A DNA stretch of 63,323 nt from a virus (Duplodnaviria > Heunggongvirae > Uroviricota > Caudoviricetes): the IMG/VR virus record IMGVR_UViG_3300003973_000001, positions 64,001-127,323 of that record. One strand, 5' to 3'. How positions within the stretch are numbered: position 1 is the first letter of the stretch; every line of letters begins with the position of its first letter. The notes under the pieces were generated by a model, which saw only the letters and a list, made by a program, of their open reading frames with translations, did no database searches and was not told where the DNA came from. Below are positions 821-18,389 of this stretch, piece by piece. A program made the translations under genes and the position numbers.

Positions 821-829
821 TTATCCACA
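821..829 (+). promoter_or_regulatory. DnaA box (perfect)
   Basis: TTATCCACA. Confidence 0.6.
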
Positions 830-1042: not shown

Positions 1043-1051
1043 TGTGGATAA
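1043..1051 (-). promoter_or_regulatory. DnaA box (perfect, inverted relative to 821)
   Basis: TGTGGATAA on + strand; 8/9 matches also at 937-945 and 1003-1011 (minus strand). Confidence 0.6.
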
Positions 1052-14954: not shown

Positions 14955-14983
14955 TTGACTGTCTAGTGTTATGGTGTTACACT
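14955..14983 (+). promoter_or_regulatory. Promoter of the recombinase-like gene, containing motif B
   Basis: TTGACT-17-TACACT. Confidence 0.7.
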
Positions 14984-15016
14984 AATACACGTAGTAATCA
15001 AAAGGAGATGATTTAT

Positions 15017-16036
15017 ATGATAGCACAAGTAATTGAATTGAATGATTCTGAAGCAGTAGATTTACATAATTTTAAAATCTACAATATTTTTCAATCTTTT
15101 ATAGGAGCGCATGCGATGAACTCAGAGCGAACAGCAGGGGAGTATCAGAGTAGAATCACAGAGTTCTTTCAAATTGTATTAAATAAACCGATTCAACTAG
15201 TAAAGGAAGAGGATGTTATAAATATTGAAAGATTAGATATTCAGAACTATGTTAGCAAGTTACTGGAAAATAAGAATTCTAAAAAGACTATAAAGACTAA
15301 ACTCAATAGCGTATCTAGTTTTTATAATGAAATGATGAAGAATAAGATATCGTTGAATCAATCGATTCTAAGAGTCAGTATGAAGACGACAACAAAGCAT
15401 CATGATTCACTATCATTTCATGAGTTAGAAGACCTGTATGAGTTTATGAGAGGCGAAAAGGAATTATCTTTAGAAAAGCGTCTCGTAACGAAGTTCTTTG
15501 CTACGACAGCAAATCGTAGGAGTGTTACATTCAATATGACTTGGAATAACATCACACAAAAGACAGACGTTGTGACAGGTAGAAAAGTGTGGGTAGTAAC
15601 AGTAATAGCAAAAGGTGTGAAAGAATCAGAGAAGCCAATCTCAGATGAATTCTATGAGGAGTTGCAACAGTTGAATAATGGACAAGATAAAGTATTCAAC
15701 CTATCCTCTAGGACGTATGAGAGAGCCTTAGAGAGATTTTCTAAGCAGTTGGGCAGGAAGGTCACTATCCATGGATTAAAGGCTACAGCAGTTACTATAG
15801 GATATCAGATGACAAAAGATATTAACCTTTGTAAGCAGTTAGCAGACCATGAAGATATTTCAACTACAGGAATCTATCTGAAAGAAGAGAAGTCTTATAC
15901 GAATCAGCTTAGCTACAATATGAGCAGAAAGTTAGATGATTCTATTTTAAAAGATATGAGCAAAGAAGATTTATTGAAGTTTCTAGAAGATAATGAGGAT
16001 ATTAAGAATTCAATCTTAATGAGATTGGGTGTATAG
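15017..16036 (+). CDS. Tyrosine recombinase/integrase-family protein (SPbeta YopP-like?)
   Basis: SAM-like N-domain; ANRRS (R), HGLK (K replaces R of HxxR), LADHEDISTTGIY (H, Y). Confidence 0.8.
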   Translation: MIAQVIELNDSEAVDLHNFKIYNIFQSFIGAHAMNSERTAGEYQSRITEFFQIVLNKPIQLVKEEDVINIERLDIQNYVSKLLENKNSKKTIKTKLNSVSSFYNEMMKNKISLNQSILRVSMKTTTKHHDSLSFHELEDLYEFMRGEKELSLEKRLVTKFFATTANRRSVTFNMTWNNITQKTDVVTGRKVWVVTVIAKGVKESEKPISDEFYEELQQLNNGQDKVFNLSSRTYERALERFSKQLGRKVTIHGLKATAVTIGYQMTKDINLCKQLADHEDISTTGIYLKEEKSYTNQLSYNMSRKLDDSILKDMSKEDLLKFLEDNEDIKNSILMRLGV

Positions 16037-16049
16037 CCTAATCTCTGGG

Positions 16050-16078
16050 TTGACACCATTAAGCAAAAGTATTACAAT
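16050..16078 (+). promoter_or_regulatory. sigmaA promoter with motif A in the spacer
   Basis: TTGACA-17-TACAAT; 29 of 30 bp identical to 31610-31639. Confidence 0.8.
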
Positions 16079-16373: not shown

Positions 16374-16554
16374 GTAACATGATTGAAAATGGTTGATATA
16401 ATAACTGTTTTCGCTTATAATTTATTTAAGCAAAAGATTTGCAGAATTTTAGTAGTTAAATTAAGCGAATTAACCAATCGCTTCAAAACTTAGGAGGTTT
16501 TTACATTGAATCAATCTATTACAAAGCACATAATAAGGAAGGAAGTAATTAAAA

Positions 16555-16983
16555 ATGAGAGATATTTTAAATTTACAGGCTTTAAAACATAGCAAGAATA
16601 GGAAACATAATAAGATTTATGAGAAAGCACATCGCATTATGTCAGAAGGATATGAGACTCCAGAACTTACTGATGAAGAAGTTATGGAGATTGCAAAAGG
16701 CTTCACAATGCTTGATACGACAGTATTAATCAATGGAGATATAAGAGTAATTAGCAAGAAAGATACTTGGATGATTCGAGATGAAGGCAGATTTTATACT
16801 CTATACCATAAAGGATTCACTTTTACAAAAGAGAGAATGAAAGAGTCTTATCACGTTCAAGATGTGTTCTATGACATAAACTATATTTTTGCAAGCATCG
16901 TAAGCCATGATGACTATGCACTGGGAATCAAATGTCGAAAGCCATCCGAATTAAAGAAAATTGTCGAATCATGTCGAAATTGA
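16555..16983 (+). CDS. Hypothetical protein
   Basis: ORF with RBS. Confidence 0.7.
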   Translation: MRDILNLQALKHSKNRKHNKIYEKAHRIMSEGYETPELTDEEVMEIAKGFTMLDTTVLINGDIRVISKKDTWMIRDEGRFYTLYHKGFTFTKERMKESYHVQDVFYDINYIFASIVSHDDYALGIKCRKPSELKKIVESCRN

Positions 16984-17030
16984 TGTGATTCGTAAGTTTT
17001 AACTGTAATTAACTTGAAAAATTTGTCGAA
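16933..17030 (+). promoter_or_regulatory. Cluster of four perfect Spo0A boxes (TGTCGAA)
   Basis: 16933, 16962, 16972, 17024. Confidence 0.7.
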
Positions 17031-17081
17031 ATTAACTGGTTAAATAAACCAAAATTCTTAAAAGAAATTATTGAAAAACCC

Positions 17082-17110
17082 TTGCATTCCTTAAGCTAAT
17101 GTATTACAAT
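17082..17110 (+). promoter_or_regulatory. Promoter of the MrpR-like gene with a motif A variant in the spacer
   Basis: TTGCAT-17-TACAAT; TTAAGCTAATGTATTACA 17091-17108. Confidence 0.7.
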
Positions 17111-17195
17111 TTATTTGTAAGGTTAACAAACTAATAAATGGAAATTATTATAAACATTAAATAAATTGGATATAATAATGAAGGGGAGTTCTAAA

Positions 17196-18389
17196 ATGAC
17201 TAAAATTATAATTTCAGACAAACTAAGACAGGAATTGGATGGACTGTTCGATGCTATAAATCACCCTATGTTAAAGGAATCTAGAAATCATTTTGAAACT
17301 AAACTATCTAAAAGTGTTGATTCTAATAAAGTTAAGTCTATCTTAGATAAGGAAGAAACTATTGATATTCTAGATAAAGATGAGGCAATTGCTTTCTTTG
17401 AAAGTCTAAGAATCCATTTTAAAAAGAATGAGTTTAGTTCAGATAATATTAAATTTGCTGAAGATGCTTCAGATACTAAAAAAGGTTTATATAATGAAGA
17501 TTTTAAAGAAGAATATTTAAGCAAGTATAAGGATAACACAAGAAGAGTTAAAAGAATTATTTTTGAAAAATCTAGAACTTTAGAATTAACTTATGGTAAA
17601 GATTTATATGATTTCAACTTTGAACAATTAGAAGAAGTTTTACGCAGTCTTAAAGCTAGTACTGTTAGGAGTTTACAAAATAGCGTAGCTACTATCGCTC
17701 AATATACTAAGTTTGCTATAAAGAATAAAAAGAAAAGCGACAAGATTAATTATATCGATGGATTCACTAAAGATAAGATTGAAGAATACTTAGATAAAGA
17801 ACGAGAAGAGAATATGATTTTCCCTAAACAGGAGATTATGAATATTGCAAATGAGGCAGAGAATCCTCAAGATGGAGTTATCCTAGCATTAATCTTTGAT
17901 GGAGTTAGCAATAAGAATGAGTTTGAAGAATTAATCAATCTATCTGAAGATGATATTGATTTTGATGATAAAGTAATCAAACTTGAAGATAGGGAAGTTC
18001 CTATGAGCGAAGATACTTACACTTTAGTAAAAGGTGCTATCAACGAGCCTAAGTATAGCAGTACTTCTGGAGATGTATCTCGTGAATATAAATTAGCTGA
18101 GAGCGAGTTTGTTCTTCGTGGATTAAGAAATAATAAACAAATCAAATGGCAGAACATTAGTCAACGTATTATCCGCCTTTCTGAGCAGTCTGGTTGGGAG
18201 AAAACTCTAACAGCGACAAATGTTGCTTATAGTGGTCAGCTTTATATGGCAGAGCAATTAATCAGTCAAGGAATGGATGTCGAACAAGCAATTGGAGTAA
18301 TAATTAAAAGATTTGGAATAAATGACAATCCTTCAGCTCAATTTTACTTAAGAGAAAGAATTGAAAAGTATCTTAAAATGAATAAATAA
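17196..18389 (+). CDS. mrpR: MrpR/YopR-family lytic-cycle repressor (catalytically degenerate tyrosine-recombinase fold) with N-terminal extension
   Basis: YLSKY..NTRRV..IIFEKS..LE..YGKDLYDFNFEQLEEVL..L; ILALIFDGV lacking catalytic R; TATNVAYSG lacking HxxR. Confidence 0.7.
   Translation: MTKIIISDKLRQELDGLFDAINHPMLKESRNHFETKLSKSVDSNKVKSILDKEETIDILDKDEAIAFFESLRIHFKKNEFSSDNIKFAEDASDTKKGLYNEDFKEEYLSKYKDNTRRVKRIIFEKSRTLELTYGKDLYDFNFEQLEEVLRSLKASTVRSLQNSVATIAQYTKFAIKNKKKSDKINYIDGFTKDKIEEYLDKEREENMIFPKQEIMNIANEAENPQDGVILALIFDGVSNKNEFEELINLSEDDIDFDDKVIKLEDREVPMSEDTYTLVKGAINEPKYSSTSGDVSREYKLAESEFVLRGLRNNKQIKWQNISQRIIRLSEQSGWEKTLTATNVAYSGQLYMAEQLISQGMDVEQAIGVIIKRFGINDNPSAQFYLRERIEKYLKMNK

Follow-up and report, generated by a model that had tools for sequence, protein, structure and literature searches.

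Four perfect copies of TGTCGAA, the Spo0A 0A box, lie within 98 bp upstream of the promoter of a master-repressor gene in a phage that appears to belong to an SPbeta-like family of plasmid-prophages in the Bacillus cereus group. We propose, with somewhat more confidence than doubt, that the four boxes are selected Spo0A~P binding sites that make repressor synthesis dependent on the state of the host, high Spo0A~P perhaps keeping the prophage silent. From its sequence, the array is probably where the phage reads the starvation and sporulation state of its host. The parts of this proposal differ in strength. The sequence, geometry, rarity and conservation of the boxes, together with the host, make their identity as 0A boxes well supported, and tuning of the repressor by Spo0A~P, and hence of lysogeny or dormancy, is plausible; we infer that Spo0A binds the array in vivo, with a transcriptional effect of the sign guessed at above, and that this binding is linked to lysogenising or to dormancy in the spore. 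0A boxes are already known from lytic phi29-type phages; here they accompany the master repressor of a phage that is temperate, SPbeta-like and carried as a plasmid-prophage.

The window analysed here comprises 63,323 nucleotides, bases 64001-127323 (the second half) of a 127,323-bp IMG/VR record, and its features are collected in Table 1. The repressor has close homologues on contigs of 115-137 kb from Bacillus mycoides, B. cereus and Bacillus sp. ISTL8. Synteny extends to a more distant relative in B. wiedmannii, a complete circular plasmid of 137.6 kb, and a sister virus record has direct terminal repeats. On the basis of these hosts, the circular plasmid and the terminal repeats, we assign the record to an SPbeta-like plasmid-prophage family of the B. 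cereus group, and its host was presumably a member of that group. The regulator itself would be supplied by the host: two Bacillus genomes with related MrpR loci encode a Spo0A_C domain that exceeds the cut-off score, and no Spo0A domain was found in the phage genome. The Spo0A box is reported to be conserved among Bacillus, including B. thuringiensis (PMC9430311, PMC4970707).

Table 1. Features of the repressor locus and related elements (window coordinates unless a contig is named)
Feature	Position	Strand	Remarks
Tyrosine-recombinase-like gene	14966-16036	+	Positional equivalent of SPbeta yopP/sroD; PF00589 and SAM-like domains
Promoter-like site TTGATA-17-TATAAT before ORF 16555	16393-16421	+	11 of 12 matches; consensus scan only
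ORF 16555 (142 aa)	16555-16983	+	Conserved phage protein; function unassigned by similarity
0A box 1	16933-16939	+	Exact TGTCGAA; codes for Cys-Arg-(Lys) within the ORF 16555 tail
0A box 2	16962-16968	+	Exact TGTCGAA; upstream half of tandem pair; uses rare Val codon GTC
Terminator-like hairpin at 3' end of ORF 16555	16965-16992	+	Followed by a short T run
0A box 3	16972-16978	+	Exact TGTCGAA; downstream half of tandem pair; starts 10 bp past the start of box 2
0A box 4	17024-17030	+	Exact TGTCGAA; intergenic; ends 51 nt before the -35 hexamer at 17082
Conserved A/T-rich segment directly before the -35	17043-17081	+	Start of the mobile mrpR promoter module
Sigma-A-type promoter of the repressor gene, TTGCAT-17-TACAAT	17082-17110	+	Read directly
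MrpR/SroF(YopR)-like integrase-fold repressor gene (397 aa)	17196-18389	+	Pfam, PHROGs and PDB matches
Example copies of the 20-mer TTAAACAAAAGTATTGCAGA	30116, 31718, 34090, 36461, 42613, 48583, 55753, 58300		
Full-length Rap (RapH_N and TPR) with overlapping 44-aa secreted Phr-like ORF	G000:C1:7057-8297 (L160:1468-2708)		Same genome, outside the window
Example copies of the B. gaemokensis interspersed repeat	G001 C12:348554-348581, C1:904930-904957		

The preliminary description of this DNA had noticed four copies of TGTCGAA within 98 bp, three of them in the end of ORF 16555, about 50 bp upstream of a -35 hexamer at 17082, with only isolated copies elsewhere, and had read them as 0A boxes. 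Each of these observations was borne out. The four copies are exact matches to the consensus on the plus strand and include the canonical dimer pair, boxes 1-3 fall inside the last 17 codons of ORF 16555, and there are 7 other copies in the window and 16 others in the whole 127,323-bp genome. The genome total of 20, counted on both strands, compares with 12.7-16.4 expected under Markov models of order 1-4, so that only the cluster is in excess; the 16 copies outside it are scattered at about chance density, mostly inside ORFs. At least four copies in one fixed 98-bp window have a probability of about 4e-10, the genome-wide probability of such a cluster is about 1e-6, and none of 200,000 random placements of 20 boxes produced one. 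Outside the 7-mer itself the four copies have no similarity to one another, and a search of 16850-17200 for boxes with one mismatch found no further ones. In addition, by eye, the box sequences do not fit the consensus sites of LexA (CGAAC-N4-GTTCG), CodY or sigma-H.

The central pair has the spacing known from Spo0A sites: boxes 2 and 3, both perfect, follow each other head to tail with 3 bp in between, the geometry bound by a Spo0A~P dimer (PMC2731898). The starts of boxes 2, 3 and 4 differ by 10, 52 and 62 bp, or about 1, 5 and 6 helical turns, and these three boxes are therefore on one face of the helix. Relative to the likely transcription start, the box centres lie near -90, -142, -152 and -181; the array spans about 90 to 184 bp upstream of that start, or 51-149 bp upstream of the -35 hexamer, and none of the boxes overlaps the core promoter. 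Perfect tandems of the form TGTCGAA-N3-TGTCGAA are rare, with 7 matches in 31 Bacillus genomes of 4.4-6.4 Mb each (the reversed control pattern gave none) and a single one in the 5.6-Mb genome of B. gaemokensis. Among 82 tandems sampled from IMG/VR, a third box occurs within 150 bp in 8 and four boxes occur in one. We note that the B. gaemokensis genome also contains about 10 copies of an interspersed repeat, TGTCGAACGGTCGATATGTTGTGTCGAA, with two 0A-like heptamers 21 bp apart, and that this repeat consequently inflates counts of paired boxes in host genomes.

What does the downstream gene encode? The preliminary description had called it a repressor, and its product is a homologue of the MrpR/YopR-type master repressors, which justifies the term: it matches the MrpR core-binding domain (Pfam PF22822) at 1.6e-21 (77 bits, cut-off 27), phrog_5830, and the YopR/MrpR structures 8bj6 and 8a0a at about 1e-17 over residues 98-366, and its homologues carry the database name "phage lytic cycle repressor MrpR family" protein. 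At its N-terminus the protein carries an additional domain of about 95 residues, mostly helical in the structural model, for which an Atlas search returned no match. MrpR/SroF is the SPbeta-type master repressor; its operators, named SPBRE in SPbeta, are long and dispersed through the genome (PMC10516654; 10.1101/2025.11.27.690993). As in SPbeta, where the order is yopP-yopQ-yopR, a recombinase-like gene, a middle gene and the repressor gene follow one another here, and the locus is also syntenic with its relatives; two ORFs without a family match also lie upstream of the repressor gene. The two loci differ at the promoter and the N-terminus. In SPbeta, yopR closes the yopM-R operon, begins 23 nt after yopQ and has no promoter of its own, whereas the gene described here has its own promoter and the extra N-terminal domain. 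PMC10516654 describes no Spo0A input for SPbeta MrpR, and the term Spo0A is absent from it.

That promoter, also part of the preliminary description, is conserved across the family. It is nearly invariant in the close lineages, and TTGCAA-17-TACAAT with a similar spacer occurs in two relatives, L011 and L012, whose repressors are about 43% identical. It shares a spacer motif with consensus sigma-A-type promoters at 16050 and 31611, and by eye no sigma-H-like elements were seen in 17030-17196. We take TTGCAT-17-TACAAT, as read from the sequence, to be a real promoter with a start near 17117. Homology to large B. cereus plasmids begins at window position 17043 (query base 644).

How well is the array preserved among relatives? 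All four boxes are present in three lineages (L001, L002 and L003) with repressors 88-94% identical, and only boxes 2 and 4 are perfect in a further lineage (L008-L010, repressor 87% identical), where box 1 reads TGTAGAA through the synonymous arginine change CGA to AGA and box 3 reads TGTCGAT. Across the five close lineages, boxes 2 and 4 are invariant, box 1 is intact in four, and box 3 is perfect in every lineage except L008-L010. Variable columns number 2 of 28 in the boxes and 46 of 110 in their flanks (Fisher 2.5e-4, permutation 2.3e-4), a comparison with few independent events because the five lineages represent only two or three haplotype groups. The bases between boxes 2 and 3 vary (TCA, TCT or TCG) at constant spacing, and the starts of boxes 3 and 4 are 52 bp apart, or 53 bp in L001-L003, despite strong divergence of the sequence between them. 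As judged from these alignments, the boxes are islands of conservation within a fast-evolving stretch. Part of this conservation could have other causes, since three boxes are coding and overlap the hairpin.

The coding context itself looks as it would if selection had acted on the DNA motif and not on the protein. ORF 16555 has no Pfam, NCBIfam, PHROGs or PDB fold match and no useful Atlas lead. Boxes 1-3 fall in its variable C-terminal tail, which includes two Cys-Arg pairs, is modelled with a pLDDT of 52-75, and is clade-specific, being entirely different in the alignment of distant homologues. The codons within these boxes are rare (GTC accounts for 8% of Val codons and CGA for 15% of Arg codons), and arithmetic on the codon table gives a joint chance of about 2e-4 for the three coding boxes. 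It is these rare codons, within a divergent tail of low model confidence, that point to selection on the DNA. The hairpin at the 3' end of the ORF, whose left arm runs from the end of box 2 through the spacer into the start of box 3, has an energy of -17.7 kcal/mol (z -5.2). Three relatives have values of -12.5 to -15.7, the structure is weak in L003, and four of the five lineages retain it.

These same features allow the boxes to be read as having no regulatory role, the heptamers being a by-product of the clade-specific tail of ORF 16555, the hairpin and one intergenic copy, all shared through recent ancestry; Spo0A might then bind in vitro without consequence. We consider this account unlikely. 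It can draw on the coding position of three of the four boxes, two of which belong to the hairpin that is itself kept in most lineages, on the confinement of the array to repressors at least 87% identical, on the lineage in which two of the perfect boxes are already gone, one through a synonymous change, and on a promoter module that works without boxes elsewhere. It does not account well for the genome-wide improbability of the cluster or for the rare codons that spell the boxes. Moreover, the intergenic box 4 is invariant, boxes 2 and 4 are fixed amid flanking columns of which 42% vary, and the hairpin needs no repeated heptamer: its right arm changes while the arm made of box sequence stays fixed. 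We retain selected Spo0A~P sites as the preferred reading.

The array has a narrow distribution. It is limited to lineages in which the repressor is at least 87% identical, and it is absent from the syntenic relatives with 40-45% identity (L011, L012, L026 and L016/L038), which retain homologues of all three neighbouring phage proteins. Neither a search of these box-less relatives for a substitute repeated heptamer nor a search of the whole 137.6-kb B. wiedmannii plasmid for two same-strand boxes within 60 nt found any, and there is no array in the 12.8 kb around SPbeta yopR. SPbeta does contain perfect 0A heptamers in that region (L158 positions 3545, 3798, 7056 and 7203), above chance density, with two in yopP, one between yopR and yopS and one in yopS. 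A lineage with an 84% identical repressor, on B. cereus plasmids of 212-274 kb, has the same promoter module joined to unrelated upstream DNA without boxes. On four plasmids (NZ_AP022929, NZ_AP022988, NZ_AP022879 and NZ_CP113429; L004-L007) this 84% identical copy and its promoter module stand beside an IS element with the phage neighbours absent, and this solitary copy may be an orphan that confers immunity. Because the array is confined to a narrow clade, we regard it as an add-on and not as part of the basic switch.

Megablast of the locus against GenBank phages and a single-protein search of genome contigs gave no match, a profile search of genome contigs gave three distant loci only, none with upstream boxes, and a pattern scan of metagenomes gave unrelated contigs only. 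A DNA search with 16555-17200 against 71 Bacillus genomes found no match beyond the coding part of ORF 16555, and that in one prophage; among these genomes, then, the array was not captured from a host promoter. The preliminary description's further claim, that Spo0A~P would tune the repressor, is supported in part: the perfect boxes, the MrpR/YopR-type gene, the conserved promoter and the B. cereus-group host hold, and an effect on repressor expression, in either direction, is a conjecture. The reading is weakened by the lineage with only two perfect boxes, by the box-less promoter module of the 84% lineage and by the box-less syntenic relatives.

Could the boxes instead be sites for a phage protein, with the match to 0A coincidental? 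The repressor's N-terminal domain, the YopP-like recombinase or the ORF 16555 protein might bind them for autoregulation or recombination, which we judge highly improbable. The array lies between two genes of the tyrosine-recombinase fold, and lambda-type integrases bind irregularly spaced direct "arm" repeats, an analogy that could give the unexplained extra domain of about 95 residues a role. The arm-binding domain of lambda Int, however, is built on a beta sheet, and the repressor's N-terminal domain is mostly helical in the model. A random repeated 7-mer would be the 0A box only about once in 8000 cases, and neither the boxes nor a substitute repeat occur at that place in lineages that have homologues of the N-terminal domain and of ORF 16555 as well as YopP-like genes. 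Finally, SPbeta-type repressor sites are longer and are distributed over many promoters (PMC10516654; 10.1101/2025.11.27.690993), but here the other 16 heptamers are at chance density.

A different possibility is that Spo0A~P does bind the array, with another target: read-through or 3'-end formation of ORF 16555, an antisense promoter, or the replication or partition of the plasmid-prophage. We find this distinctly unlikely. In its favour, the boxes are distant from the core promoter and lie directly over the terminator-like hairpin; against it, we know of no description of Spo0A as a roadblock to elongating polymerase. On the minus strand, a promoter-like sequence, TCGACA-16-TACAGT at 17029-17002, has the reverse of box 4 for a -35 and would be read antisense into ORF 16555, but the last base of its -10 is not conserved in L001 and L003. 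Replication block by Spo0A at 0A boxes is known from phi29 and oriC (PMC2731898), and this family is carried as a circular plasmid; against a replication target, DnaA boxes were looked for near the array and none was found, the perfect ones being at 821 and 1043. As a separate observation, those two DnaA boxes, TTATCCACA at 821-829 (plus strand) and 1043-1051 (minus strand), stand in a non-coding leader together with one at 1267 (plus strand) that has a single mismatch, and this cluster, where the window begins, could serve as an origin of replication or titrate DnaA.

Comparison with the phages in which 0A boxes are established supports the identity of the sites and sets this array apart in its placement. 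In phi29 and Nf, as here, the phage genome contains the host consensus TGTCGAA, with boxes paired at a spacing of 3 bp; Spo0A protects 25-30 bp over such a pair (PMC2731898). Those boxes couple phage development to sporulation, as the array described here may do. Unlike this phage, phi29 and Nf are lytic. Their boxes are at most about 26-40 bp from core elements of early and late promoters, are also close to replication origins, and shut down lytic transcription and replication. Here, in a temperate SPbeta-like plasmid-prophage, the nearest box is 51 nt from the -35, three boxes are coding, and neither DnaA boxes nor genome ends are nearby.

The closest architectural precedent is the spo0A region of the host. 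In B. subtilis spo0A, several 0A boxes lie between tandem promoters and are occupied cooperatively (10.1101/2025.01.21.634141). Likewise, in spo0A and spo0F and at the present locus, several boxes follow a sigma-A promoter and precede a second promoter. In B. subtilis, the downstream promoter is sigma-H dependent and overlapped by one box, whereas here it looks to be of the sigma-A type and is touched by none, and the promoter-like sites upstream lie at a distance of more than 500 bp.

How might Spo0A~P act from this position? The array is situated between the upstream units (the promoter-like sites at 16050 and 16393, ORF 16555 and the hairpin) and the sigma-A promoter, and for this reason repressor synthesis is the process most likely tied to the transition-state or sporulation signal of the host. 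Transcripts from the promoter-like site at 16393 would run into the array. We propose that a Spo0A~P dimer would occupy the tandem boxes 2 and 3, with further protomers on boxes 1 and 4. The distance from the array to the start fits neither classical activation sites, which are beside the -35, nor repression sites, which are over the promoter. Our best guess is that high Spo0A~P would sustain or raise repressor output, or would insulate the gene from upstream read-through, and that the plasmid-prophage would thereby remain quiet while its host starves or sporulates.

The same genome encodes a protein that could act on the other side of this pathway. Outside the window lies a full-length Rap with an overlapping Phr-like ORF; the Rap scores 82.7 bits for RapH_N, carries TPRs, and aligns over its full length with RapF, RapI, RapJ, RapH and the phage proteins Rap105 and Rap3T. 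A gene for an XRE-type HTH protein is just upstream (L160:653-1006), and no SPbeta-type AimR was detected in the genome. The Rap is present in this genome and in the sister phage G003, both of which have the boxes, and is absent from the box-less B. wiedmannii plasmid; it also occurs on a box-less B. gaemokensis prophage contig, and the co-occurrence of Rap and boxes is therefore imperfect. Phage Rap-Phr cassettes, for example that of phi3T, are thought to modulate Spo0A~P (Bernard et al., 10.1101/2021.07.15.452460). In the passages of that report considered here the phage acts on the host pathway, and no proposal is made that Spo0A~P in turn feeds back on the repressor gene of the phage itself. 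It is conceivable, and in our view very doubtful, that the Rap-Phr pair senses the density of lysogens, with Rap lowering Spo0A~P, imported Phr relieving this effect, and Spo0A~P acting on the array. Such a loop, if true, would be a peptide-signalled lysis-lysogeny circuit that resembles arbitrium in function and is routed via the host sporulation regulator.

SPbeta-type phages are a leading model for signal integration by temperate phages, combining arbitrium peptides with SOS input via an antirepressor. In the literature considered, no input from a sporulation regulator to an SPbeta-type repressor gene is described. If true, a selected Spo0A array at the repressor gene would add a nutritional and developmental input to this model, and would explain the silence of a spore-former's plasmid-prophage while its host sporulates. 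Together, the array and the Rap-Phr cassette would constitute a circuit that can be tested in strains of B. cereus and B. thuringiensis, for which natural variants with four boxes, with two boxes, and with none beside the same promoter would serve as controls.

Finally, we note a repeated element elsewhere in the genome. The 20-mer TTAAACAAAAGTATTGCAGA occurs in more than 12 near-identical copies upstream of genes, mostly on the plus strand and several within about 20 nt of a start codon. Taken together with the three promoters at 16050, 17082 and 31611, which have the -10 TACAAT, these copies form a candidate set of phage-specific promoters or repressor operators.
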